Notes: generated by a model from the letters alone, not told the origin. A stretch of DNA of 64,000 nucleotides from Scenedesmus sp. PABB004 (GCA_014905635.1 JABVCE010000004.1:1054001-1118000); one strand, 5' to 3'. Shown: positions 11,386 through 64,000, numbered from the stretch's first letter. Numbers and translations are program-made.

Positions 11386-11628
11386 CGCTCGTGGCGATCG
11401 GATCAGGCAAACCGTGCTGCTTGCGCGCCTTTCCTTTTCACGCACGTCGCGGGGCCTGCGCCCGGCCTGGCCGTGCTGGGACACCGCCGGATGGTCCCAG
11501 CGGGCGGTTTGGTGGCGGTGCCAAAGAGCGGGGTGCGGTGCGGCTTGAGCCCCGCGGCGCGGTTGAGCGCCGGCGTTCGAAGAGCGGCCGTGCCGACGGT
11601 CTGGATTCACTGAGCGGCGTCTGCTGCT

Positions 11629-11838
11629 CGCAGGCCGTGCAGGCCGCGCGGCGCCAGGGCCTTCACGCTGGCGGGAACGCCGCCTGCGCGTGCGGAGCGG
11701 TCCGGCAGGGGGCTGGCTGGTGGCGAGCATGGTGTCGGGGTGCTGGCTGTGTGCGGTCGCTGGCGCGGGCGGTGGCGGGCGTCGTCTGCGACTCGGGCCG
11801 GGCGCAGGCGCGGGGCGCCTTAAGAGCGCGGCGAGCGG
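11629..11838 (-). pseudogene. Truncated duplicate of the small-HSP 5' end (TATA-like box, 5'UTR, first ~35 codons with indels)
   Basis: Aligns by eye to 13211-13437 (e.g. ggccgtgcaggccgcgcggcgccagggccttcacgctggcgggaacgccgcc; tggtggcgagcatggtgtcggggtgctg; ccttaagagcgcggcgagcgg). Confidence 0.88.
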
Positions 11839-12252: not shown

Positions 12253-13323
12253 TCACTCGATCGGGATCTCCTTGGCCTTGGGCTCGGCCTCGGGCTTCTT
12301 GGGGATGGTCACGACCAGCACGCCGTCGCGCGCGGTCGCGGTGATGCCCTCCGCGTCGACGTGCGGCGGCAGCGTGAACGAGCGCATGAAGCTGCCGAAG
12401 CGCCGCTCGACGCGCGTGGCGCGGCGCGGCGCGGGCTCAGCGCTGCCCTCCTTGGCGCTGGCGCCCTCCGCGGCCTCGCCGCCCTCCTTGGCCTCGCCCT
12501 CCTTGGCCTCCGCGGGCTCGCCGCCCCAGACGCGCTCCTCGCGGCGCTCGCCCGAGATGGTCAGCGTGCCGTCCATCAGCTGCAGCTTCACGTCGTCCTT
12601 GCCCCTGCACACCGGCGGCGGCGGCGGCGGCAGCGTGAGCGCGGCATGCCGCGCGCGGCAGGCAGGCGGCCGGGGCGCGCGCGGCGCGCTGCGGGTGCTT
12701 CCGGGTGCGTCCGGGCGCGCGCTGCGGTGGTGCAGCCGCGCCGCTCACATGCCGGGTATGTCGGCCTTGATGACAAACGCCTTCTCATCCTCCTCCACGT
12801 CGGTGGCGAGGCGCAGCGCCGGCAGCGCAGGCGCCACGGGCGCGGCGGCGGCGCCGCGCGGCGCGTCGAGGCTGCCGCGCCACGGCCCGAACAGCAGGTC
12901 GTCGTCGAGCAGCCCGAAGCCGCGTGTCAGGGCGGCCATCTCGCGCTCCATGTCGCTGAAGATGCTCGGCAGGCGGCCAAACCTGCGGCCGGCGGCGAGG
13001 GCGCGCGTGAGCGGCGGCGGCGGCGGCGGCGCGGCGCGGCCAGCGCAGGCAGCGCGGCGGCGGCGGCGGCGGCGGCGGCGCGCCCAGGCTCACATGGGGA
13101 AGGGGTCGCTCCGCATCATCATCGCGCCCATGCCCTCCGGCGCGCGGCGGGCCACGTGCTTGCCCTGCTCCTTCGGCGCCGCGTCGGCGGCGTCGCCCTC
13201 CTTGTAGGCGCGCAGGCCGTGCAGGCCGCGCGGCGCCAGGGCCTTCACGCTGGCGGGAACGCCGCCCGCGCGCGCGGAGCGGACCAGGACCGCCCCCGCG
13301 GGGCGCAGGCTGGTGGCGAGCAT
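12253..13323 (-). CDS. Organelle (plastid-type) small heat shock protein, HSP20/alpha-crystallin family, 3 exons
   Basis: Transit peptide, Met-rich segment (SIFSDMEREM), alpha-crystallin domain DVEEDEKAFVIKADIPGM...RVERRFGSFMRSFTLP...DGVLVVTIPK, C-terminal IxI (EIPIE). TGTAA on minus strand at 11900-11904. Confidence 0.95.
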
Positions 13324-13476
13324 GGTGTCGGGGTGCTGCTGCTGGCTGTGTGCGGTCGCTGGCGCGGGCGGTGGCGGGCGTCGTCTGCGACTCGGGCCCG
13401 GCGCAGGAGCGGGGCTCCTTAAGAGCGCGGCGAGCGGGCGGGTCGCGAAGCGGCGGGGGCGCGCCGAGGCGCGCCG

Positions 13477-24226: not shown

Positions 24227-24943
24227 GGCTGCTGGTCGCCTGCGCCGGCCCCGCTGCCGCTGCGACTGCTGCTGCTGCTCCGGCGCCGGCGGGCACCGCA
24301 GTGCCGGTGGGGCGGGCCTGCGACGGGCGGCGCGGGGCAGGGCGTCGATCGCGGCGCCGCGGCGAGCCGTGCGGCGCGCGTGGGGTCGCTGCCGGCCTTG
24401 ATACCCGCGCTGCTGCTGCCGGGCGGCCTCCGCGCGCCTCCCGGCCCGCGGCCCCGCGGCAGCCGGCGCCCCCGCACGCCCGCGGCCGGAGAGGGCTCCT
24501 CGCGGGCGCCGCGGGCCGCCCGGGCCGCTGCCGCGCGGCGCTCACCTGCGGGCGCTCCGCGCGGAATCTGGCCCTGCAGCCTCCGCTGAGCCGGCACGCG
24601 CGTGTGGCCGCTCAGATCGGGCGGGAGGCGGCACTGGCTGCGGCGCGGGCGGCGGCGGCCTGGGGCGGCGGCGCGGCGGCGCGTCACTCCGGGGCGCAAG
24701 GGCTTCCTGTGGCCGGCGCGAGCAGGAGCGGAGCAGCGAGGGGAGCTGTAGTAGAGCGTCCCATCGTGAACGGCGCGGTGGGGGCGCGAGCCGCGCGCGA
24801 CGGGGGCAGCCACCGGCTGCGCCGCCCCGCGCCGGCGGCGGCCGCGCCCCCGCCCAAGGTCCGAGCTCGTGGCCGCTGCGCCCAGGCCACTGCTGGTGCT
24901 CCCTCACGCCTGGTGAGCGCTGCGGCGCTGTACGCGGCTCGGC

Positions 24944-25848
24944 GCGGCAGGGCGCGCCGCCGCGGTGCCGCGCGGGTCGCGCCGCGCGGCGCGGTCGCCC
25001 GCGCCGGGGGCCGGGCGGCCGGGCCCTGCTGCGCGCTCGCGCGCGCCCCGCCGCACCCTCGATTTTGCGCCACTGGCGCCCGTAGAGCTTGAGCGCCTCC
25101 ACAAACGCCGCATGCTCCTCGTCCGTCCAGCGCTCGCGCGGCTTGGTCACCGTGTAGCGGCGCCGGGCCGCGAGGCTGCTGGTGCTCTCCCCCGGGCCCT
25201 CGCCCCGCCCGGGCTCGCCCGGCCCCGGGGCGCCGCTCATGACGCCGGGGCGGCCTAGCGCCCCATTCCCGTCGACCGTGCGCGCGCCGCGGCGCCTGCG
25301 CGCGGACGCGCTGAGGGCTGCCTGCGGCACGGTGCCTGCTGGGGGGCTGCGGCGCGGCGGGGGCGTGCCTGGGCGTCGACGCGGGGCCGACTGTGGCGGC
25401 GCCGGCGCGCGCGGCGCGCCGGGCCTCGGCGAATCGGGCGCCAAAGTGACGCCATGTAACATATCAGGCGCGCCCCGCGCTCCCCCTTTTCCCTGCGCGC
25501 CTCGCGACGGGTCCGGGCGCTGCGACGCCGCGACCGCTGCGACGCGGAGGCCCGGCGCTGCGCCCCGCGGCCGTGGTCGGCGCGCAGGCCGGGGTCCCTG
25601 CACACCCCGCCCCCCTCTCTCCCGCCGCGCGCTCCGCCGCTCACTCTCGCTCTCGCTTGCCGCAGCGGCTCCTCCTCGCTTTCTCTCGTGCACCAGCCGT
25701 CAGCAGCAGAGCTCCGGACAGTTGCGCCCGGAGCAAATCGGCGCTTGGGTCACGCGCGCGCTCAGTGCGGGCGTCTGGTCGAGATACCCCAAAAGCACAG
25801 CCGGCCGCCCCGGGCGTCCAATTCGCCCGGGGGCGTCGCGCCTGCTGG
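24944..25848 (-). pseudogene. Truncated duplicate of the CCA1/LHY-like gene 5' region (upstream region, exon 1, part of intron 1)
   Basis: Matches 32044-32947 at an offset of 7100 bp. No difference seen by eye over 24944-25657, then more diverged. Lacks exon 2 (SHAQKF helix). Confidence 0.92.
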
Positions 25849-26233
25849 CCGTCAGACCCGTCGCTCCCAAGTGCGTCAGCGGCAGCAGACGAGCAAGCGC
25901 GGTGGTTGCGGGCGCCGCCCCGCCGCGGCTCGGGCGGCCGCAGCAGGGCGGCGCGTGTCGACGTGATGGGATGCAGGCCAGGCTCAGGGAGACCAGTCTT
26001 GCAGACACGGGATGGCGACAGACGGGCAGTGCGAGCAAAAAAACCAGGTGCCACACAGAGACGTGAGGGATGTGCGAGACCGGCCGCCCGGCACAGCTCC
26101 AAACACGAACAACGCACCCAGGAACGCGCTCACTCCCCCGGCAGGTCTCGTGTCCCTCGCTCCCCGTCAAACGCGCGCGCAGCGCTGCCCCGCACGCTGC
26201 ACCAGCTTCCCCCGGGTCTTCCCCCTCGCCCCC

Positions 26234-30201: not shown

Positions 30202-32340
30202 GCCTGCTGCTGCGCCCGCAGGTGCTGCGCCTGGTCGGTGGGCGCGCCCGTGCCGTCGGCGCGCTGCCCGCCTGCGCCCCTGCTGCCGCTACCGCTGCCG
30301 CCGCCGCTGCCGCCGGCGCTGCCGCTGCCGCCCGCGCCGCCGCTGCTGGAATGGGGCGGGCCTGCTGCGGGGGGCCCGCTGCCGCTGCCGCCCGAGCCCA
30401 GCGCACTGCCGCTGCGCACGCCCAGCGCAGCCAGGCCCCTGCCGGCCGGCCAGGGCGTGATGCTGCTCGCGTTGCTGCCGCCCGCGCCCAGCGCGCCTGC
30501 CAGGCCCGCGCCCGCAGCGGCCTGGGTGGCGGCCTGTGCCTGCCGGCTGCTGCGCGGCCGCTCGTCCGGCTGCTGCTGCTGCTGCTGCTGCGCGTCCCTG
30601 CCGCGCAGGTCTGAGGCGTCCGCCGCCGCCCGCGCAGCAACCGCCGCGGGGGCGCGCGTAGACGCGTGCCGCGACGCGTCGGGCGACGCGTCGGGCGCCG
30701 CCTGCGCGAGCTCCGCAGCCTGCAGCTCGGCGCCCTGGCTCACGCGCTGCTGCTCCCGCTGCTCCGCGCGCTCGCCGCTGTCGGCGCGCGCCGCCCGCGG
30801 CAGCTCCTCCGCCTGTGCGAGCTGCGACGCCGACATCTGCACCGGCTGCGGCGCGACGAGGTGCAGCGCCTGCAGCTGCGGCAGCAGCGCCGCGAGCGGG
30901 TTGAGCTGGCCGCCAGCCAGCGTGCTGCCGAGCAGCAGCGCCTGCAGCGCCGCGTCGCCGGGGGGCTGCCCAGCGAGCTCGCCGAGCGGGTGCACCAGGA
31001 ACGGCAGGCACCCGAGCGCCGCCTTCTCCTGGATGCGCGCCTGCACCTGCTCGCCCGCCGCCTGGATGACCGCGGTCGCCGCCGCCGCGGCCGCCGCGGC
31101 CGCCGCCGCCGCGACCGCCTCGACCGTGCGCATGTCGGCCGCCGTCGGCGGCGCGGCCGCGCCGCCGCCGGCCGCCGGCGCCTGCTGCTGCTGCTGCTGC
31201 TGCTGCTGCGCCCACTGCGCCATGTTGAACGCGATGCGCCGCGCCATGTTGCCCGTCAGGTCGCCGCCGGCGCCGCCCAGGAGCTGCTGCGTCGCGCTGT
31301 CCGACGGCGTGAGCTGCTGCTGCTGCTGCTGCGCCGCGGCCGCGTGCCGGTGGTGCTGGTGGTGGCTGTGCGCATGGCGCTGGTGGCCGTGCGCGTGGTG
31401 GTGCGCCGCCAGCGCGGCGCCCCCCAGGCCCACCGGCGCGCCGGGCGGCTGCCCTCCCGCCGCGGCCGCTGCAGCGAGCGGGCTGCCGCTCGTGCCCAGC
31501 TGCGCGCCCGCGAGCAGCTGCCCCAGCAGCGTCGTGCCTGGGTGCGCCGCCGCCAGCGGCGCCTGGCCCAGCGACAGCGCCGGCAGCTGGCCCGTCAGCA
31601 GCGCGTGCTGCTGCTGCTGCGACGAAAGCGGCTGCGACAGCGGCTGCGACAGCGCAACGGACGGCGCTGCTCGCGGGCGCGCGGCGGCGGCGGCAGCAGC
31701 GGGTGAGCGGGACCCCGAGCGCGCGCGCCTGCGCGTCGCGCCGCGCGGCCCCCGCCCGCGCACCCGAGACCGCCGGCTGCGCGCGCTGCCCGGGCTTCTT
31801 CTTGGGGCGCGGCGGCGGTACCTCGATGCGCTCGCCTGCGGCGCGGCGCGGCCGGTAAGCGCGGGCGCGGCTACGGCGGCGGCCGCGGGTGCGGGAGCGC
31901 CGCCGCGCACTCTCGCTGGCGGTGCCCTTGGTGAGCTTGGAGAAGAACTTCTGGGCGTGGGAGCGGATCTGGACGGCGGTCTTGGTGCCGACGTGCTCTG
32001 CGCGCGCGGGGCGGTGGCCTCAGAGACGCGGCAAGGCTGGGCAGCGGCAGGGCGCGCCGCCGCGGTGCCGCGCGGGTCGCGCCGCGCGGCGCGGTCGCCC
32101 GCGCCGGGGGCCGGGCGGCCGGGCCCTGCTGCGCGCTCGCGCGCGCCCCGCCGCACCCTCGATTTTGCGCCACTGGCGCCCGTAGAGCTTGAGCGCCTCC
32201 ACAAACGCCGCATGCTCCTCGTCCGTCCAGCGCTCGCGCGGCTTGGTCACCGTGTAGCGGCGCCGGGCCGCGAGGCTGCTGGTGCTCTCCCCCGGGCCCT
32301 CGCCCCGCCCGGGCTCGCCCGGCCCCGGGGCGCCGCTCAT
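26234..32340 (-). CDS. CCA1/LHY/RVE-like SHAQKYF-class MYB transcription factor with a very long low-complexity tail
   Basis: RRYTVTKPRERWTDEEHAAFVEALKLYGRQWRKIE|EHVGTKTAVQIRSHAQKFFSKL...IEVPPPRPKKKP and the LHY-like [17 protein letters not shown] block. The 3' part needs two +1 corrections, so the end point is tentative. Confidence 0.88.
26247..26345. repeat. 18-nt coding tandem repeat, about 5 copies (AEPAAP)
   Basis: gccggcgcggcgggctcc repeated in tandem. Confidence 0.85.
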
Positions 32341-33423
32341 GACGCCGGGGCGGCCTAGCGCCCCATTCCCGTCGACCGTGCGCGCGCCGCGGCGCCTGCG
32401 CGCGGACGCGCTGAGGGCTGCCTGCGGCACGGTGCCTGCTGGGGGGCTGCGGCGCGGCGGGGGCGTGCCTGGGCGTCGACGCGGGGCCGACTGTGGCGGC
32501 GCCGGCGCGCGCGGCGCGCCGGGCCTCGGCGAATCGGGCGCCAAAGTGACGCCATGTAACATATCAGGCGCGCCCCGCGCTCCCCCTTTTCCCTGCGCGC
32601 CTCGCGACGGGTCCGGGCGCTGCGACGCCGCGACCGCTGCGACGCGGAGGCCCGGCGCTGCGCCCCGCGGCCGTGGTCGGCGCGCAGGCCGGGGTCCCTG
32701 CACACCCCGCCCCCCTCTCTCCCGCCGCGCGCTCCGCCGCTCACTCTCGCTCTCGCTCGCCGCAGCGGCTCCTCCTCGCTTTCTCTCGTGCACCAGCCGT
32801 CAGCAGCAGCGCTCCGGACAGATGCGCCGGAGAAAATCGGCGCTTGGGTCACGCGCGCGCAGTGCGGGCGTCTGGTCGAGATACCCCGAAAGCACACAGC
32901 CGGCCGTCCCGGGCGTCCAATTTGACCGGGGGCGTCGCGCCTGCTGGGCGTTTCGTCCGCCGCGCGCAGTGCGCCGGCCGGGGGTTGAGCGGCGCTTCGG
33001 CCGGCGGCGCGCCCCGTCGCTTCATCGCGCCCCGGCCGCGCGCCGCCCCCACACAGAGCGTGAGGGCGAGCGTGAGAGCGAGAGAGCGCGAGGGGAGAGA
33101 CGGCTGCCACTCCCACCGCGGGCAGCCAGCGCCCACCGGCGCTCGCTCGCGGCTCCCCGGCGCCCGCCGCCCGCTCCACGGGCGTTCGTTGGCGCGGCAG
33201 GTCGACGTGGCGGCAGGCGGGTCAGGGTGCGGGCCAGGAATGCACGCTGCGTGAGGCCGACGAACGATGGGTAGCGCGGAGCGAGCGGTGAGCGGTGGCG
33301 GGCGGCGGGGCCGCGAGGGTGGGTTTGGGCGGCCGGAGGCGGGCCGCGACCGGCCATGCGGCCCCGCGCCGCGCGCCGCCGGCTCAGCGCCGCCGCCGCC
33401 CGCCGCAGGCGCCGCCGCCCTGG

Positions 33424-40770: not shown

Positions 40771-41065
40771 GGGCACGGCCGCGGGCGCGGCGCGCGCGGC
40801 CGGCAGCCTTCTGTTGCCGGCCGCGCGGCGGTTGTAAGGGGAGCACGCTCGCTTGGCGCCCGCCGGGCGCCGCACCCCGCGCCGGCGCGCGCGCACCCGC
40901 ACAGCCCCCGGCGGCGGCGCAGGGCGCAGCCGCGCCGCTGCCGCCCTCGCCCGCCGCTGCCGGACGCGGCGCGCCTGCCCGCCCGCCCGCCACTCCCCGA
41001 GCGCCCGGCGCCACCGGCAGCACTCGCCTCCGCTGCCCGCGCGCGCCCGGCGCCCCGGCAGCACC

Positions 41066-54948: not shown

Positions 54949-57422
54949 TCGGGCGCCCCCTGCCCAGCGCCGGGCGGCCCACTTGAGCGAGGCGCGAGCG
55001 CCCGGGGCCTCACCGCCGCGCTGGCCGGCTGCCGGCCCGCCGCCTCGAGGCGTGCCTCGTTGCGCCGCCGCTCCTTCATGCTGCGCGGCCCAAAGATTGC
55101 AGCCTTGGCGTCGCGCGCGAGCGTTGCCGCGAGCAGCTCCTCGCGCCGCGACGCAGCCTTGGCGCGCGCGTCGCGCAGGCCCGCCGCCAGCCGCAGGCGC
55201 TGCAGCACAAGCAGCACGTCGGCGTGAAGGCACGCCAGCTCCTGCTCCGCTGGCGACATGCCTGCGCAGCGCGGGGGCAGTGCGCCCTGGCTCGGCCAAG
55301 GCAGCAGCGCGCCGCCAGCTGCCGTGCGAGCCCGCGCGGCGCACCTGCGACCAGCTCGGCCGTCGCGTCGTCGGCCTGCGTGCGCGCGCCTGACACCCAG
55401 CGCAGGTGCTCGTCCGTGGCGTCCCGCAGTGCCAGCAAGGCGTCGCCGCGAGCCTCCACGATGGCTGCCAGGCCCTGCGGGGGGCGGGCGAGGGGTCAGC
55501 GGCGTGAGCGCGGCCTCGGATGCTTGCACGCGCCAGCCCTGGCCGCCCCTCTGGCTCGCCCTTGTTGCACCTGCTGCGCCACTGCAATGCCTCGGTCCAG
55601 GTCGCCACACTCGTGGCGCAGCAGCGCCAGCCGCACCGCCACGCAGCCGCACAGAAGGCCGTTGCCTGCGTCAGACTGCTGCAGCGCCCCGTGCACGCCC
55701 GCCAGCACCTCCTGCGCAAGCGTCGCGCCGCCGTCTTCGCGGCCGAAGCACCCGTGCAGCAGGGGGAGCGCCGCGACGTGCAGGCGCTCGGCGGCCGCCT
55801 CCAGCAGGCGAGGCTGGCAGGGGGCCAGCGCGGTGCTGTGCTGCATGAGGCAGGCCGCCATGTCCCGCACCCCTTGGCCTTCGCTGTCACCGCCCGCTGC
55901 AAGCCCCTGCGCGGCGCGCAGCACCGCCGCCGTGGCCTGCACGCTGCTCGCAGGCTCCCCGCGCCCGGCGAGCGCCACGCCCGCGGCGTCGGCCGCAGCG
56001 GTGAGCCGCAGCAGCAGCTCCTGCTGGCTGTGCCGGTGGCTCACGGTCAGCAGTGTCTGCGATTGGCGGAGGCGGTGCAGCGTGCGTGGACGCTGCGCTC
56101 GAGCCCGTGCCGCGCCCACGGCTGCTGCACCCCCTGCGGCCTGCCCTCGGGCGGCCGCCCACCACGTGCAGGTCGTCCGGCAGGCCAGCAGCGCCGGGCT
56201 CCAGGAAGGGCGCCAGCAGCTGTGCCGCCGCCGCCAGCACTGGCTGCAGGTGCGCTGGCAGCGACACCTGCGCGAGCGGCGCGCCGCCGCCGCCGCTTGC
56301 GACGAGCAGCCCCGCCAGCACGCGCAGCTGCTCCGCCTCGGGGCCCAGCGCCCGTGCCAGCTCCAGCACGGCGGCGGGCGACGCCGCGGGCGCGGCCGGG
56401 TCGGGCACCAGCAGGCGCAGCAGCTGCAGCCGCGCGCGCGCGGCGCGCAGCTGCACCGCGACGGCCAGTGGCACGGGGTCGAGCGCCTGCGCGGACAGCA
56501 GCTTGTCAACCTCTGCCGCGCCGCCCTGCAAGAAGGCCTGCGCGGCACGCTGCTGGGCCGCGCCCTCGTCGCCGCCGGCCGCGGCGAGGGCGGCGTGGCA
56601 GCGCGCCGCCGCCGTGTACAGCTGCAGCCGCCAGGGCAGGTGCTCCGGCGTCACCAGGCACAGGTGCGCCTCGAGCGACTTGGCTGCGGGACGGCAGCGG
56701 CGGCGGCGGCGGCGGCGGCGGCCGCGGTCGTGGGCACGCGCGCGCGCGCGTGCGCTGGTGTGCGCGAGGCAGCGCTGCGTGCTGTGCGTGCCGCGGTGTG
56801 CACCACCTGCGTAAGCGTAGGTCGGCAGCGCGTCGGCATGGTGCCCCGCGAGCAGCAGCGGCTCGGCGGCGCGGTGCATGTCGGCCGTGACGGCCACAAG
56901 CTCGTCCGCCAGCGCCGGGTGCGGCAGCGCCGCCGCGGCCGCGGCGCGCAGGCCGCCGAGCGCGTCGCGCAGCGCGGCCAGCGTCTCGCGCCGCGCGAGG
57001 CGGCGGTCGCGGCACAGCGCTGCGGCGGCCCGGCACGACTCCAGTCCCCGCAGCGCGCGCACGTGCAGCACCAGCCGCCCCGTGGCGTCCAGGGCCTTGC
57101 CGTCGTGCTCGGGCCGGCCCGGCAGGTCCAGGGCCGCGACGCGGCCGAAGCACACGGTCGCGGCCAGCTCGTGCGCGCCGCGCGCGGCGGCGTCCTCGCC
57201 GGCCGAGAGCAGGCACCGCGCGAGCGCGTGCGGCGGCAGCCGGGCGGCAAAAAAGTCGACCAGCTCAGCCAGCTTGCGGCCAGCGCGGTGCCGCGCGCGC
57301 GCTGCCCCGTGCGTCGCCGCGCTCGGCAGGCCGCCGGCGCGCTCGCGCTGCGGCAGCGCGGCCAGCTGCTGCGCGAGCGCCGCGGCGAGCGCCGCGCCCG
57401 TGTGAGCCGTCGCATCCGACAT
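46012..57422 (-). CDS. CFAP54: Cilia- and flagella-associated protein 54 (central apparatus C1d), large multi-exon gene
   Basis: N-terminal block ALPTYAYA|AKSLEAHLCLVTPEHLPWRLQLYTAAARC and the Fn3-like block AAYCKPTGAGVAL.LN...GLRPNEEYALALA|VYDDQG...LAALPLP match recalled CFAP54 motifs. Size of 11.4 kb fits. Confidence 0.82.
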
Positions 57423-57793
57423 GATGGCGTCAGCTGCGGGAGTGCCGGCGCGGTGCGATCATCCGGCTGCGCGGACGCGAACTGCGCCGCCGTCGCGCTG
57501 CTGCGCGCGCGCGGGCCATGGAGCGGACGCCCGCGGGAACGTGTCGGCCGATGGTGAAGCGGAGTGATGCGGCGATGGAGCGCGCCGGGAGGCTCGCAGG
57601 GCCGCCAGAAACGCGGGGCGGCGCCGCCGGCGCGCGAGCGTCAGCGACGCTCTGGCCGCCCTCCCTGCCGCCCTGAGCTGCCCGCCGCCGTGGTCAGAGC
57701 GGCCTTCAGTCACAAGCGCCTCAATTGACCCCTACCGCTCACCGCGCGCCCTCAGGCGCGCCCCGCGGGCCGCGGGCGCCGGCGTTGACCGCC

Positions 57794-59195
57794 ATGGCGT
57801 CGTCGCCGCCTGAGGCGCAGGAGCCGCGGCGGCCGCGCACGAGCGTCGACATCGCCGTGAGGAGCGCGCACGACCACCTGGCGGAGGCGCTGGCCGACAT
57901 GGAGGCGCTCGGCATCGTCACCAGCCTCGCGGGCAAGGTGCGCGCCGCCGCTGCTCTTCCCGCGCACGTGCGCCCGCTGCGCGCGGCCGCCCACGCCGCG
58001 CGCCGCCCCCTGCAGATTGTGGGCGGCGTGGCCGTGAGCCAGTCCTACTACGCGCACGTCCTGCAGACGGAGGGCCACAGTGAGGCGCCGCCGCCGTGCC
58101 AGCTCCTCATCGCCCGCGCCCAGCGTGGCGGCGGCGTGACGATGCTGCCGGCGCAGCAGGCGGCGCTCGAGGGCGGCGAGGCGGGGCTGCCGCGCGAGTC
58201 GCCGGTGCTGTCCAAGATCATGTCGCCCGCCGCGCTCGCGGAGCTGCACTGGGCGCGCGTGCCGGCGGTGGCGATCTTTGGCTGCTTCGTCGCCGACGAC
58301 GACGGTGCGGAGGTGGCGCAGAGGCAGCAGCGGCGCCGCACGGGCGCCTCGCCGTCCCCGCCGTGCGCGCACAGCGCCGCCACCGTCCGCGACCGCCGCG
58401 GCCGCGCCGCAGAGCTGAAGGAGGCGGCCGCGGCGGGCATCCCGATCAGCCCCAGCATGACCGGGCCGCACCCCGAGGAGCTCATGACGCAGCTGGAGGT
58501 CTTCTTCAAACAGTTCAAGTACCCCGACAGCAAGTGCTTCATCCTGTGAGCCGCCAACCCGCGGCGCGGCGCACGGGGTCGCCGCTGCGCACGCACGTGG
58601 GGCCAGCCTGCTCGGGGCCTTGCGCGGGCCGCAGCTGCCTGCCCGGCCCCGCACGCGCCCCGCCCACGACCTGCCCACGCCCCGCGCGCGCCCCGCCCGC
58701 AGGCGCGACTGGGGGTTCCTCATCTTTGGCGCCGATCTGGCCGACGCGGTGGCGACGTTCAACGACCAGCTCAAGGAGGCCCTGGTTGCGGGCGCCGAGG
58801 GCGGCGACAGGCTGCCCGGCGACGGCGACGGCGACGGCGCGCCCGCCGGCGCGCCCGCGCGCGCGAGCGCCGACGGCGGTGGCGCCTCTGGCGGCGGCGC
58901 CGCGACGCCCAGGGGCCTGCACGGCGCGCTCGCGCACGCGTTCCGGCGCCTCGGCGCGCACGTGGGCATGCTGCGCACGCAGAGCCTGCCGACCGACGAG
59001 GGCGGCGCCGGCGACGGCGGCGCAGGCGTGCGCAGCCTCAAGGCGCCCGGCGAGCGCGGGCCGGTGTCGGAGCCGAGCAGCCCCATGATCGGCGCCGACC
59101 TGCCCGACAGCATCCGCGTGCTCAGCACGGTCGCGCACCGCCAGAGCAGCGAGTACCGCGTGCCCTCCTTCGCGGTCGGCCTCAAGCCCTGGTGA
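57794..59195 (+). CDS. Uncharacterised protein, possibly a degenerate class II aldolase/adducin-like fold
   Basis: Four exons with clean GT-AG joins. C-terminal KCFILRDWGFLIFGADLADAVATF resembles the aldolase II HG...G.s..eA end motif but lacks the His. Confidence 0.6.
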
Positions 59196-59429
59196 CGACG
59201 GGGTGTCGCGGTGGTGTGGGGAGGGCGCGCCGCGTGCTGTGGCGGCGGTCAGCGCGCGGCGGCGTGCGCGGCGGCGTGCGCTGGTGGCTTGGTGAACTCA
59301 ATTTATTCTTCCTGCTTGCCGCGGGACCCGTGCGCCGGCTGTGTGGGTGCGCGCCGGAGGCCGCGCGGCGGCCGGGCGGCGCGGGCACTGCGGCGCTCAA
59401 CCCCGTGCGGCGCAGTTTGTGCGCGCATG

Positions 59430-59843
59430 GGCGTGCTCCCCGGCCTCGCTACCGCCGTGGGAGCGCCGGCCGGTGGTCTCAACACCGGCGGCTGGGGGAT
59501 GGGGGCTGCCGGGGCGCCCCGGGGGGCGCCCCGGCGCCGCGGGCGCGCGGCGCGCGTGCGCGGCGCTGCCACCGCCGCGCGCGCGCGCCGCCGCCCCCAA
59601 CACCGACCATGGGCATCCTCTGATCGCCGGCCGCCTGAAACAGGCCACAGCGGCGCGAGGCATGACGGTTTGGGACCGGCCCGCAGGTCGGTGCCCCGCG
59701 AGGGGTCCCCCCCACCCGGAACGGGTGACAAGGCGAGAAACGCACGCGCACACGCCTGACCTAACCTGGCAACACAACACAACAGCAAGAGGCCTTTTAA
59801 CGTCCTGCCCAGGACGGAGAGCGCAGCGCACCGCACACGCCGC
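59430..59843 (-). ncRNA. Candidate Fanzor omega-RNA (fRNA) scaffold and element 3' end
   Basis: Directly downstream of the Fanzor stop and dense in stems: 59801-59816, 59713-59727, 59672-59709, 59633-59645, 59508-59535, 59469-59489, 59435-59464. Boundaries unknown. Confidence 0.6.
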
Positions 59844-61655
59844 TCACGCCGGGGGGTCCACCGCGGCGGCGGCCGCCTGCCGGAACGCGCCGGCGAGGCG
59901 CGCGCCGCCCGCCGTGCCGCGGCCGCCGCGCAGCAACTCGTGCAGCGTGAGCGCGCAGATGTTGCGCGCCGCGTTGTCGTCGCGCGGCGCGACGACCGTG
60001 CACCCGGGGCACTGCACCAGACCATAGATGCCCCGCAGCTTCTCCACGCGCGCCCCGCAAACAGAGCAGGTGATGCTGGTCCGGTGCTCGTCCATGAGCA
60101 CCGCGGCGACGCGCCGGCGCGCGTAGTACGTGCGCAGCAGCGCCAGCAGCGCCTGCCGCGGCGGCCCCGGCCCCGAGATGCAGCCCCCCATGCCCAGGCT
60201 GGCGTCCCCGATGCCCAGCACCACCGCGGGCAGGTCGGCGGGCAGGCGCGCGTGCTGCCGGACGCGCCCGCGCACAAAGACCCGGCCGTATGCAGTCAAC
60301 TGAATCGCCGCATGCAGCGCGCGCTGCTTCAGCCCGTGCTTCCGCAGCCGCCACGCACACTCTGCACGGCACGCAAGCAAGCTATATGCGAATGCATTGT
60401 CCAACACATGATGCACCCGGCCGTTGCGCCACGCCCCGGCGGCGGCGACGCTCGTGCCCGAGTAGGCAGGCACGCGGTTCAGGCAGGCATGCACGCAGTC
60501 GCCGCCGCCGGGCGGGCGGCGGTCGTACCGCCCCGGCCGCCCCGGCCGCCCCTGCTGCCACAGGCAATGCCGCTCGATCCCGCGCGAGTCGCGGTGCGCG
60601 GCGGTCTTTATTCGGATGATGCGCTCCGCCTCGTAGCGGCGGCCGTGGTCGCCGCGGTGGCGCGGCGCGTTGGGGCAGCGCCGCTGCGCGATGCGGCGGT
60701 GCGCGACACGCGTGCAGCCCGGGCCCTGCCGCCAAGTCGCGGCGCATATCATGCGCGCCCGGCCCGGGTCGATTCCAACTATGCGCACGCCCGCGTGCAC
60801 GGCCGCGGCCGCGCCGCGCAGCGCGTGCCCCGGCGGCAGGCCCTCCACGCCGCGCAGCTCGCACGGGTCGAGCGGCAGCGCGTCGAGCGCCGCCTCGTCG
60901 GCCACGCCGTGCGGCGCCAGCGCGTCGCAGAGCAGCCGCCGCGCTGCCTCCACGCCCGCGCGGTGCTCTGCCGCGCGCTGCGCCGCCTTGGCGGCGCGCG
61001 ACTGCTGGCCGCGGCGCGGGGCGGGGTCGGCGGCGCCCTCAACGCGCACGCGCACGTGCAGCGCCGCCAGATCAAACGTCACAGAGCCCGCGAAGCGCGT
61101 GTTGGCGTGCAGCACGCCGCGCGCGCGCCCGGGGCGCCGGCCAAAATCAAAATATGCATCCCAAACGGGATCGTAGCCCCCGCCCTCTTGGGTCGGCGGT
61201 GGCGGCGGCGGCGGCGGCGGCGGCTGGCCTGCCGGCTGGCCCCCCGCGGGCGCCCTGGCCTGGCGCGCGCGCAGCGCCGCGTCCAGCGCCTGCATGCCCG
61301 TGGTGGACAGGTGCAGGTGCTGGGTGCCGTACTTGGGCACCGGCGCCAGCGTGAAGGCGCGCCGCTTGGGCAGCGCCACGCGCGCGGCGTGCCGCGAGCG
61401 CAGGCCGCGCAGCACCTTGCACGCGCCCGTGACCGCGACGAGCGCGTCGGGGTGCTGCCCCGCGCCGCCGGCGCGCTGCGGCGGCTGCGCGCCGCCGCTG
61501 CGGCCGCCGGGCGGCGCCGGCGCCGCGCCGGCGGCGGTCGCCGCAGCCAGCACCGCCTCGAGCGTCGCGCACACCGCGTGGCGCCAGCCGGCCGAGACAT
61601 CGCGACGCAGCGCCGCGACAGCCGCCGCCGCCTCCTCGGGCGTGCGCGGCGCGCG

Positions 61656-61712
<57 letters not shown>

Positions 61713-64000
61713 GCCGGCGGCGCCGGCGCAGCGCGACCCTGCGCGGCCGCTGCGGCGGCCAGGTGGCCGCGCGCGGCCGCCAGGTGGCCGCGCGCGGCCG
61801 CCAGTCGGGCGCCGCAGTCGCCCAGCAGCCGCGCGCCCTGGTCGCGCGCGGCGCGCGCGGCGTCCGCCGCGCGGCGGGCCGCGTCCGCGTCGGGCGCCAC
61901 CGCCGCGCCGTGCGGTCGCGCGAGGGCCCGCTGGTGCTGCACGAGCGCCGCGTCGCGCTCGTGGTGCTGCGCCATGGCAGCCTGCCACTCCGCCTCCACG
62001 GCTGCGAGGTCGGCCCCCACCGTCGCGTCGCCGGCGGCGGTCAGCGCGGCCAGCGCCAGCCGCAGCCGCTCCGCGGCCGCGGCCGGCAGCGCCGCGCCCG
62101 GCCCCTGGCCCGGCGCCGCGCCCGGCGCGGCGCCTTGCCCCCGGGCGCGGAGCAGCCGCGCCTCCTCTACGGCCAGCCGGCGCCGGAGCGCCGCCGCGTG
62201 CGCGTCCTTGCGCTGCAGGCGGCGCAGCCGGTTGCGGGCGTGGCGATCAGGGACCGTAGCGCCGGCGACCTCCCGCTGCAGGCCCTTGAGGGGTTCCTTG
62301 CGCAGACGCACGGCCGCCTCGCTGGCATCCACGGCGGCGCGCAGGCGCTGCACCGCCGCCTCGAGCTTGCCCAGCTCGCGCGCCCGCTGCAGCTCGCGCA
62401 GGCGCGGCTCCTGGGCGCTGGCGTCCAGCAGCTTGGGGGGCGCCGGCGGACGCTGGCCGCGGCTGCGGCTGCTGCTGCTGCTGCCGCTGCCGCTGCCCCC
62501 GCTGCTGCCGTCCAGCGCCTCTGCCAGCGACTCGACGGCCGCCGCGAGCGCGCCGGCCGACGCCGGCTCCGGGGCCGCCCCGAGCGACGCGGCGCGGCGC
62601 AGCATCGCCTCCAGCGCCGGCCGCGCCGCCGCGCCCTGCTGGGCTGCCAGCGAGTCCGCGAGCCGCGGCGCGCAGGCAGCAAACATGTGCTGTTGGCCGA
62701 GCATGACGACAAAGTCGCGCGCGACGCGGCGCGCCATGGCGTCGGCGTCGCCCTCCCGGTACGCCAGGCCCTCGAGCTGCCGGGCCAGCGCCGCGCGCCA
62801 GGCGTCGTAGGCCGCGTCGTGCTGCTGCCGCGCCGCCGCGCCCGCGCCGTGCGCCAGCGGCTCCGACGGCTGCGGCACGAGCGGCGCGCCCCCTGCCTGC
62901 GCGCCCGCGTCCGGCGCGCGCGGCATGCCGCTCCGCGCCCAGTCGAGCACGCGGCCGTGCTTGCCGGCCGCCTCGTCCGACTCCCAGCGCTGCAGGCCGG
63001 GCGTCGCCTGCGCCCCTGCCGCCTGGCGCGTGCGCGCCGCGCCGGCCGCGGGCGCGCGCGCCTCGCCGTCCGCCGCCGCCGGGAAGGGCTGCTCCAGGTG
63101 CAGGCGCATCCGCGCGAGCATGTCGCGCATCATCGCCATGGCCAGCCGCAGCCGGCCGGCGTCCTGGCCGTCGCCCGCCGCTGCGGGCACCACGCCCTCG
63201 CCCGGCTGCAGCACGCCCTGGCGCTCCCAGAGCAGCGGCGACGCGCTGTACAGCAGCGCCGCGCCGCCGGCGATGAGGCAGTCGCGCGCGGCGCGGCTGG
63301 GCGTGCCGGCGCAGCCCGCGGCAAACCACGCCTGCAGGGCGGCGGCGTCGAGCGCCTTCTCCAGGCGCTGGCCGTCAGCGAGGTGGAGCTGCATGTTGGT
63401 GTTGTACAGCTCCGCGAGAGGGTTGAGCAGGTGGTGGTGCAGGGTTCCGGTCACCCAGGCCGGCAGGGGCACGCGCTGCAGCTCGTTGACGCCGCAGGCC
63501 TGCTCCAGCGCGTGGCGCAGGTCGCTGGACAGGCCGCCGCCAACGCGCCGCCAGTTGCCCTGGCTAAAGAAGTTCATCAGGTCGTACACGAGCGGCGCGC
63601 CGCCGCACGCGGCCTGCAGGTAGCAGGCGCACGCGGGCGGCGGCGGCGCCGGCTGCTGGGCTGGCGGCGCTGCGGGCGGGGGCTGCTGCTGCTGCGGGCC
63701 CTGCTCCTGCGCCGCCGGCTGCGGCGGCGGCTGGCGCGTGTCCAGCCCGTACAGCCGGCTGCGCAGCGGGCGGGCGGGCGGGCGGGCGGCGCGACTCGGC
63801 GGGCGGCGCGGAGGAGGGGGCGCAAAGCGCGCGGGCGCGCCCCACCCGCGCGCGCGCGCACCTCGCCCCATACACGAGCGCCACGTGGTGCGCGTCGCGG
63901 CCGAGGATGCCCAGCCGGCTGTAGGCGCACACGAGCGCCTCGAGGTAGGGGACCACCTCTGGCTTGCGCACGGCGCCGCGCAGCGCGCAGACGCGCACGC
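59844..64000 (-). CDS. Fanzor1 (TnpB-derived RNA-guided endonuclease), intron-containing, start outside the window
   Basis: RuvC-I RIVGIDPG (D codon 60768-60770), VVLGIGDA, rearranged RuvC-II LMDEHRTS (E codon 60087-60089), zinc finger CSVC...CPGC, RuvC-III PRDDNAARNI (D codon 59979-59981). WED-like FTLAPVP...HLHLST and FAGSVTFD upstream. Intron 63759-63861. Confidence 0.93.
61658..61711. repeat. Perfect (CTG/CAG)18 microsatellite inside the Fanzor gene
   Basis: 18 uninterrupted ctg units. Confidence 0.95.

Follow-up and report, generated by a model that had tools for sequence, protein, structure and literature searches.

What does the stretch of DNA that follows the stop codon of a large minus-strand open reading frame (ORF) in the alga Scenedesmus sp. 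PABB004 encode, and is it the source of a guide RNA? The sequence-only reading of this locus took the ORF for a Fanzor gene and the region behind its stop, described as dense in hairpins, for the scaffold of an omega-RNA. In the characterised TnpB and Fanzor systems, the nuclease gene's 3' end and the transposon's right end together give rise to the guide RNA, and the guide itself consists of the first 14-21 nt of the flanking DNA, as described in PMC10432273 and PMC10530073. Two issues are thus at stake, namely, the identity of the ORF and the nature of its tail. Throughout, the window denotes the whole stretch of DNA that was analysed (64,000 nt, with a GC content of 79%), and the interval flagged in the sequence-only reading is one of the features in Table 1.

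Table 1. Coordinates of the features of the nuclease locus, counted from the first nucleotide of the window
Feature	Coordinates	Strand	Basis
Nuclease ORF, 714 codons	59844..61988	minus	PF07282, alignment with mimivirus Fanzor, RuvC and zinc-finger motifs
Stop codon of the nuclease ORF, TGA	59844..59846	minus	sequence read on the minus strand
Stretch covered by whole RNA-library contigs, at least three sequence variants	59562..59883	unassigned	two metatranscriptome libraries of one study (X13, X7)
Flagged interval: non-coding tail adjoining the stop, with four small hairpin elements	59590..59843	minus	sequence, folding, hairpin counts
Hairpin 1, CGUCCU-gggc-AGGACG, followed by UUAAAA	59801..59816	minus	pair probability 0.00-0.95, depending on context
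U/G-rich linker, with six SNP sites and, in its UGUUG repeats, an indel of 3 nt	59728..59800	minus	composition; contig variants
Hairpin 2, CACCCG-uuc-CGGGUG	59713..59727	minus	robust in the ensemble (0.82-0.98); no listed variant
Claimed multibranch element, closing stem GGGACC/GGUCCC (59709-59704 / 59677-59672)	59672..59709	minus	probability of closing stem 0.02-0.09
Hairpin 4, GCCUG-uuu-CAGGC	59633..59645	minus	robust (0.78-1.0); no listed variant
Cluster of four GC-rich hairpins (59598-59539, 59538-59504, 59492-59465, 59464-59435)	59435..59598	both	folding
Non-coding spacer between two convergent genes, 648 nt	59196..59843	unassigned	no codon-position GC periodicity
Last coding stretch of the convergent host gene	58620..59195	plus	GC1 > GC2 << GC3 pattern

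The nuclease gene and the composition of its tail

The translation of the ORF reads GIDPG ... EHRTSITCSVCG ... CPGC ... RDDNAARNI. GIDPG corresponds to RuvC-I, the segment MDEHRTS-ITCSVCG...CPGC combines a Fanzor-type glutamate with a zinc finger, and RDDNAARNI corresponds to RuvC-III. This arrangement conforms to the C-terminal motif that defines Fanzor and TnpB proteins according to Bao and Jurka 2013 (PMC3627910), D-X(125,275)-[TS][TS]-X-X-C4 zinc finger-X(5,50)-RD. The C-terminal part of the protein (residues 621-677) matches the Pfam family PF07282 (Cas12f1-like TNB) with an E-value of 8e-10 and a score of 39.2 bits, the cutoff being 26.3. Among proteins of solved structure, the best match is L79, a TnpB-like protein, or Fanzor, of mimivirus (9b0l, ApmFNuc; E 0.0026), and the glutamate of MDEHRTS lines up with E467 of this protein, the relocated, or 'alternative', catalytic glutamate that is described as characteristic of Fanzors in PMC10530073; accordingly, the RuvC-II glutamate of the ORF occupies the relocated position.

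When all 1.84 billion representatives were scanned with HMMER, only 30 proteins reached E <= 1e-3, with a top identity of 37%. PF07282 was detected at E <= 0.01 in all nine of these relatives that were scanned, and above the curated cutoff in seven. An alignment of 10 sequences shows no variation at the glutamate, the threonine or three of the zinc-finger cysteines (C342, C345 and C364), and hardly any at C361, the RD pair or the asparagine of NAARN; the relatives stop shortly past a common F-R-Q/R motif, and so does the ORF. An AlphaFold2 model of the last 415 residues was too poor for a fold search (mean pLDDT 48.3). Because the PF07282 match, the alignment with E467, the D...E-TS-CxxC...CxxC...RD motif and the alignment of the relatives concur, the minus-strand ORF that ends at 59844 is, by its sequence features, a Fanzor-type TnpB homologue, and the premise that a Fanzor stop codon is located here is sound. 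The GC3 of the ORF resembles that of the host, which, together with the identity to a further PABB004 protein described below and the enrichment of TGTAA in the window, places the gene in a eukaryotic genome, as befits a Fanzor.

The coding sequence ends where the stop codon indicates. Codon-position GC periodicity in the nuclease frame extends from ~59850 to ~61600, and the codon-position GC spread, 0.24-0.44 in the ORF, ends at the stop codon; from about 59200 to 59845, it is at most 0.10. Because this periodicity is absent, the 648 nt past the stop, up to the end of the convergent gene, are assigned to a non-coding spacer. As regards position, therefore, the tail lies directly after the stop, where a guide RNA of this kind would be encoded.

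The composition of this tail had been described as unlike that of host 3' UTRs, and the actual difference is greater than claimed: the linker is the most T-rich 73-nt segment of the window, with 37% T on the minus strand, a value that is matched by none of the 6393 73-nt windows on either strand, and its G+T content of 70% is within the top 0.66% of windows. For the flagged stretch as a whole, the GC content is 68.5% and the T content 22%, compared with 67-85% and 6-18%, respectively, in the 250 nt preceding the nine TGTAA sites of the window. This pentanucleotide, taken in the sequence-only reading as the host poly(A) signal and reported absent from the region, occurs nine times in the window against 2.5 expected, and is indeed missing here, the nearest instance being at 40833, ~19 kb away. 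Both observations bear on the main alternative to a guide RNA source, namely, that the flagged stretch merely represents an ordinary 3' UTR, either of the Fanzor mRNA or of host transcripts that read through truncated copies, such that its hairpins are due to chance in GC-rich sequence, and any scaffold is either confined to the segment close to the right end (59435-59598 and beyond) or no longer made. The uniqueness of the linker composition in the window and the lack, throughout the tail, of TGTAA as a poly(A) signal argue against this possibility, which we regard as unlikely, albeit with an appreciable probability.

Folding and variation of the tail

All four hairpin elements are found on the minus strand exactly where the sequence-only reading placed them. 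The density of hairpins that it deduced from them does not hold up. The flagged interval contains three perfect hairpins (stem of at least 5 bp, loop of 3-8), compared with 1.74 +/- 1.33 in 1000 dinucleotide shuffles, 24.7% of which contain three or more; across the 64 kb, 502 windows of the same size (254 nt) contain 6.9 on average, and 87.6% of these have at least three. The flagged stretch is hairpin-poor by the standard of its window, and its hairpins are no more than chance would produce.

The same applies to its folding energy. The minimum free energy (MFE) of the flagged interval is -121.4 kcal/mol, versus -120.2 +/- 5.0 for dinucleotide shuffles (z -0.24; 69 of the 200 shuffles equal it), the core at 59600-59830 gives z -0.59, and none of the 80- and 120-nt sub-windows inside 59590-59843 on the minus strand has a z below -1.4. 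Folding no better than dinucleotide-shuffled controls had been named beforehand as an outcome that would refute the scaffold, and since the interval folds no better than its shuffles, this is the outcome obtained. In Boltzmann ensembles computed in three sequence contexts, only hairpins 2 and 4 are robust (0.78-1.0, mostly >0.9). The other two elements, hairpin 1 and the multibranch, are thermodynamically unfavoured: the pair probability of hairpin 1 is 0.00, 0.01 or 0.9 depending on the context, and the multibranch, claimed as a fold closed by GGGACC/GGTCCC, has a closing stem of low probability (Table 1).

Variation in the tail can be gleaned from contigs of public sequencing runs. Parts of the stretch are present in 17 such runs, mostly freshwater metagenomes, and four were compared over 58400-62100. 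The listed variants comprise at least 13 SNP sites and at least four indels in 59596-59835, compared with eight SNP sites and one indel in the part of the ORF at 59888-60500; among the listed variants, the tail is thus more variable than the adjacent ORF (13 SNPs and 4 indels per ~320 nt against 8 and 1 per ~650 nt). Indels of 1 nt are among the tail variants, as fits a non-coding stretch. Hairpins 1, 2 and 4, which together span 44 nt, contain none of the 17 listed variant events, a deficit that is non-significant (estimated p about 0.08). When the variants are placed on the MFE structure of 59883-59556, nine variant positions are paired, with 10 alternative alleles, of which five keep the pair and five break it; among these nine positions, the listed contig variants include no two-sided compensatory substitution. 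In two RNA-library runs, X7 and X13, and in one contig of the DNA run X5, 1-nt insertions extend a C-run (59705-59702) and a G-run (59697-59694) together. The CCCC-UCGC-GGGG hairpin that these runs would form has a low predicted probability, and because another X5 contig, a third haplotype, has just one of the two insertions, the joint extension may be due to homopolymer slippage.

Thus, the stable, conserved structure that is expected of a guide RNA was not found in the flagged interval: the z values are close to zero, the hairpin counts are at or below the background level, and the alleles at paired positions are split 5:5. Folding and hairpin counts at the chance level, a tail more variable than the ORF, and the breakage of pairs by half of the changes at paired positions all speak for an ordinary 3' UTR. 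On the other side of the ledger, hairpins 2 and 4 are invariant among the listed variants.

RNA-library contigs, further copies and the right end of the element

In the RNA run X13, six of the seven contigs lie wholly inside 59562-59802. In X7, three whole-length contigs among the eight listed of 30 span 59627-59806, 59670-59806 and 59777-59883. Records 25 and 27 of X7 share an overlap of exactly 30 nt across hairpin 1, as neighbouring unitigs would, so that RNA-library sequence crosses hairpin 1 into the last codons of the nuclease. The variant contigs match across 59562-59883 with differences of a few per cent. These contigs give no strand, ends or level, RNA libraries can contain DNA, and both RNA runs come from one study. 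That the RNA-library contigs centre on this segment, and do so in several variants, argues against an ordinary 3' UTR. Over the part of the ORF at 59888-60600, DNA contigs are present and RNA-library contigs absent; missing cover carries no evidential weight.

The confinement to ~320 nt of the RNA-library contigs, which could derive from either strand, could also be accounted for by a separate non-coding RNA gene, or by antisense transcription from the plus strand, in either case merely adjoining the Fanzor gene. The chance of this appears very slim: at E <= 10, the Rfam search over 59560-59880 returned no family on the tail, and the ARAGORN scan found no tRNA there; the segment is joined to the 3' coding part of the Fanzor gene in DNA contigs (record 4 of the run X1 and record 18 of X5); and no RNA contig connects it with the gene on the plus strand whose end is at 59195. 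The Rfam scan gave two matches inside the nuclease ORF, which were judged to be chance.

The DNA contigs that contain the tail come from two studies other than the RNA-library study. Record 4 of X1 (896 nt) covers 59665-60560 with three differences. Records 17-22 of X5 together cover 59556-60498 except for two gaps (59649-59701 and 59882-59986), record 16 of the same run covers the neighbouring plus-strand gene up to 59292, and one X5 contig joins 59522 to 59593, skipping 70 nt (59523-59592), and extends to about 59461. The depth of the X5 contigs is 20.8-32.3 across 59702-60498 (records 18-22) versus 2.7 on the neighbouring gene (record 16), a contrast that hints at multiple copies, although metagenome depth is not the same as copy number. 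Several contig joints or loose ends (at 59871, at 59570, from 59881 to 59984, and from 59595 to 61834) were discarded; their short sides are in GC-rich low-complexity sequence, and they probably represent other organisms or repeats.

A further copy of the 3' coding end was detected in the same alga. A word-indexed protein search identified a hypothetical protein of Scenedesmus sp. PABB004, a member of the Chlorophyceae (P0031, 271 aa), that is 100% identical to the ORF over the last 115 codons and continues past the shared end into an OB-fold protein, a part that is not encoded in this window. Given this different context, there is at least one further locus with the same Fanzor 3' coding end; its gene model probably adopted the GT at 59847-59846, which overlaps the TGA, as a splice donor. 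The copies are consistent with 5' truncation: P0031 retains the last 115 codons only, and the DNA contigs, which come from metagenomes and do not amount to a census of copies, stop or diverge at ~60498-60560. Together, P0031 and the DNA contigs of the 3' part (59556-60560) suggest a mobile, 5'-truncating element similar to the CRe families of Chlamydomonas. The gene model places the second locus upstream of, and on the same strand as, an OB-fold gene, so the RNA contigs could be read-through or 5'-UTR transcripts of such copies, which is another point in favour of the 3' UTR alternative. Self-BLAST of the 64-kb window revealed no second copy within it, and an exact 22-mer comprising hairpin 2 and its flank had no matches in either metagenome or viral contigs. 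Protein-seeded locus searches retrieved 16 metagenome loci, with 30-48% identity over short segments, and one viral locus with 39% identity; these TnpB-like loci are too distant for their tails to be compared.

The significant structure at this locus is located downstream of the flagged interval. The segment 59430-59600 folds with -135 kcal/mol, compared with -113.9 +/- 4.4 for its shuffles (z -4.76; none of 200 equals it), and the signal is seen on both strands. That the sole significant structure lies beyond the flagged stretch again agrees with the 3' UTR alternative. The GC-rich cluster has the appearance of palindromic DNA close to the terminus of an element; it may be a subterminal part of the element, and it may or may not belong to the RNA. 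Because record 16 of X5 ends at 59292, and the joint contig from that run reaches ~59461, the right end of the element is probably between 59293 and about 59461. The element thus appears to extend at least about 130 nt past the flagged interval, through the GC-hairpin cluster, and it follows that the 3' end of the scaffold and the guide would not be found at a boundary at 59590. A boundary at the junction of TTTT and hairpin 1 (59795-59816) was considered as well and rejected, since it is spanned without a break by contigs of both DNA and RNA origin.

A palindromic cluster that folds on both strands would fit a DNA-level cis element, that is, hairpins of the terminus of a rolling-circle (Helitron2-like) transposon that function in transposition and have no RNA role. 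The occurrence of the 3' part without the 5' part in the metagenome contigs and in P0031 points the same way, given that green-algal Fanzor1 genes are described in PMC3627910 as residing on non-autonomous Helitron2 elements with 3' subterminal hairpins and frequent 5' truncation. Helitron hairpins, however, are located within ~20-30 bp of the 3' end, whereas the flagged interval is at least 130 nt away from any possible end. A repeat search of 58900-64000 for terminal inverted repeats recovered only low-complexity GC pairs, and no flanking TTTT target was found, the sole plus-strand TTTT in 57000-64000 being at 59795, within the sequence shared between copies. Pfam and PDB searches with neighbouring ORFs identified no family, and no RepHel or other transposase domain was detected in the four of them that were scanned. 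We consider a purely DNA-level role of the flagged stretch improbable.

The tail as a possible source of guide RNA and comparison with known systems

Because the nuclease frame is intact, the odd non-coding tail is represented in RNA libraries, and the existence of 3'-only parts matches the pattern of CrFNuc-1 and CRe elements, we read the flagged stretch as the tail of a Fanzor element that would supply the 5' part of a guide RNA or a processed leader, and give this reading an even chance of being correct. Of the original claim of an omega-RNA scaffold, the Fanzor and the non-coding 3' tail stand, and the RNA-library contigs are in its favour; the structural argument fails, and the multibranch is disfavoured.

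In the proposed scheme, the tail would extend at least about 385 nt past the stop and would begin with a U/G-rich segment of lower GC content that contains the two robust small hairpins (59562-59843), continue with the GC cluster (59435-59598) and finish at the right end. It would be transcribed with or after the nuclease gene, as in the characterised TnpB and Fanzor systems, and the resulting RNA would be processed to a guide RNA (omega-RNA, fRNA). The flagged segment would contribute the 5' part of that RNA or a processed leader; the scaffold would extend to the right end of the element, beyond 59461, and the guide would be the 15-21 nt of host sequence immediately past that end. The strand of the RNA, its processing, its binding by the nuclease and the position of the guide are all inferred from the features of the locus and the analogy with these systems. 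A bolder version of this scheme, to which we assign only a slight chance, is that the tail represents an unusually long, two-part guide RNA (at least ~385 nt), with a U/G-rich low-GC module and an expandable GC-palindrome module, which is made mainly from 5'-truncated, nuclease-less copies beside host genes and serves one or a few intact Fanzors in trans, so that the copies form a dispersed guide array in a eukaryote.

A guide RNA at this position would be expected in an element of this known type; in the lineage concerned, it has no earlier description. No Scenedesmus Fanzor is present in the supplements of two 2023 censuses, as far as these are searchable, and a full-text literature search combining Fanzor and Scenedesmus produced none either, the match listed concerning Auxenochlorella. 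Within the literature searched, Chlamydomonas CrFNuc-1 and Klebsormidium KnFNuc are the only green-algal Fanzors that have been studied; if confirmed, a Fanzor and guide RNA from Sphaeropleales (Scenedesmus) would join these few cases. Confirmation would also shed light on how transposons behave in GC-rich algae, and as the source stretch is 79% GC, it could interest searches for RNA-guided nucleases with unusual target-adjacent motifs.

In ISDra2 TnpB, the guide RNA (reRNA or omega-RNA) stems from the nuclease gene at its 3' end and from the right end of the element. In principle, a 3'-end guide RNA of this kind is what we propose here; unlike the Scenedesmus locus, ISDra2 is a bacterial IS200/IS605 element, in which the RuvC-II glutamate is canonical and the scaffold, pseudoknotted and well defined, overlaps the ORF.

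Among the eukaryotic systems, the omega-RNA scaffolds of SpuFz1 and GtFz1 are reported to be ~75-90 nt long and to lie immediately next to an inverted repeat that is well delimited (Saito et al. 2023, PMC10432273). The likeness would consist in an RNA located between the stop, or the last codons, and the right end, with a guide of 14-21 nt past the conserved part; in contrast, the tail here measures at least about 385 nt, and no inverted repeat was found. The elements CRe-1, CRe-2 and CRe-3 are described as non-autonomous Helitron2 Fanzor elements that are often 5'-truncated with intact 3' ends (PMC3627910), and the marks of such elements are a 5' T, a 5' hairpin, asymmetric terminal inverted repeats (ATIRs), a 3' subterminal hairpin and insertion after TTTT. 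The Scenedesmus element resembles them in the occurrence of the 3' part without the 5' part (P0031, and contigs that reach ~60500-60560) and in the GC-rich hairpins towards the 3' end, and differs from them in that no termini, ATIRs, TTTT target or target site duplications (TSDs) were identified.

The closest comparison is with CrFNuc-1 of C. reinhardtii, a Fanzor1c carried on Helitron2 elements, for which Jiang et al. 2023 (PMC10530073) report small RNAs that map to the 3' UTR and 20 extra copies of the fRNA in the genome. The same source describes an upstream part of this 3' UTR that is conserved and yet missing from the mature RNA. This precedent lends support to the ordinary 3' UTR alternative, and the stop-proximal segment in Scenedesmus could likewise fall outside the mature scaffold. 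Unlike CrFNuc-1, with its Helitron2 association, the Scenedesmus element has no Helitron termini that we could find, its protein relatives are at most 37% identical, and the ORF lacks an evident intron in the last ~590 codons. The two systems have in common a green-algal host, the relocated glutamate typical of Fanzors, and extra 3' copies apart from the full genes; and the candidate tail in Scenedesmus, known from sequence and contigs, occupies the position from which the CrFNuc-1 fRNA originates, namely, the 3' UTR immediately following the nuclease gene.

Both ends of the Fanzor coding sequence

Judging by GC content by codon position, minus-strand coding upstream of the Fanzor nuclease ORF is unbroken from an ATG and runs in a frame different from that of Fanzor, with the switch between frames located close to CAG/GCN repeats. 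Continuous coding in another frame therefore leaves two possibilities: these sequences may constitute an N-terminal extension of Fanzor, of ~750 residues, joined via an intron or a frameshift, or, alternatively, they may represent two abutting genes. No Pfam family was found in the 930-codon ORF of this region.

At the other end, the final 115 Fanzor codons recur at another locus of Scenedesmus sp. PABB004, where the deposited gene model of P0031, a 271-aa protein, runs them into an OB-fold protein. This model apparently uses as splice donor a GT overlapping the stop codon of Fanzor. The fusion is probably an annotation error, arising because a truncated copy of the element lies upstream of a host gene.

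Coordinates of the features discussed
Feature	Position	Strand	Properties
Upstream coding stretch	63871 (ATG) to ~61620	minus	
Region of the frame switch	61600-63871	minus	
CAG/GCN repeats	61645-61725	minus	
T-rich linker	59728-59800	minus	37% T
GC-rich hairpin cluster	59430-59600	both	z -4.76 vs shuffles
Segment missing from a variant contig	59523-59592		
Long direct repeats	24936-25852; 32035-32951		917 nt each; 98.3% identity; 7.1 kb apart
Short direct repeats	11626-11838; 13208-13437		~215-230 nt; 88.7% identity

The non-coding tail

The linker within the non-coding tail has the highest T content among 73-nt stretches of the entire 64 kb, and contains short UGUUG-type repeats that vary by 3 nt from contig to contig. 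Further downstream, four GC-rich palindromic hairpins form a cluster whose folding is much more stable than that of shuffled sequences, on both strands; part of this region is absent from one variant contig assembled from a DNA run. The cluster may correspond to the element's subterminal part.

TGTAA motifs and direct repeats

TGTAA occurs 9 times in the whole window, vs 2.5 expected from shuffles, an excess that fits its use as a poly(A) signal in Scenedesmus sp. PABB004. The window also harbors a pair of short direct repeats and a long pair that could be the LTRs of a ~8 kb retrotransposon; each long repeat contains TGTAA.
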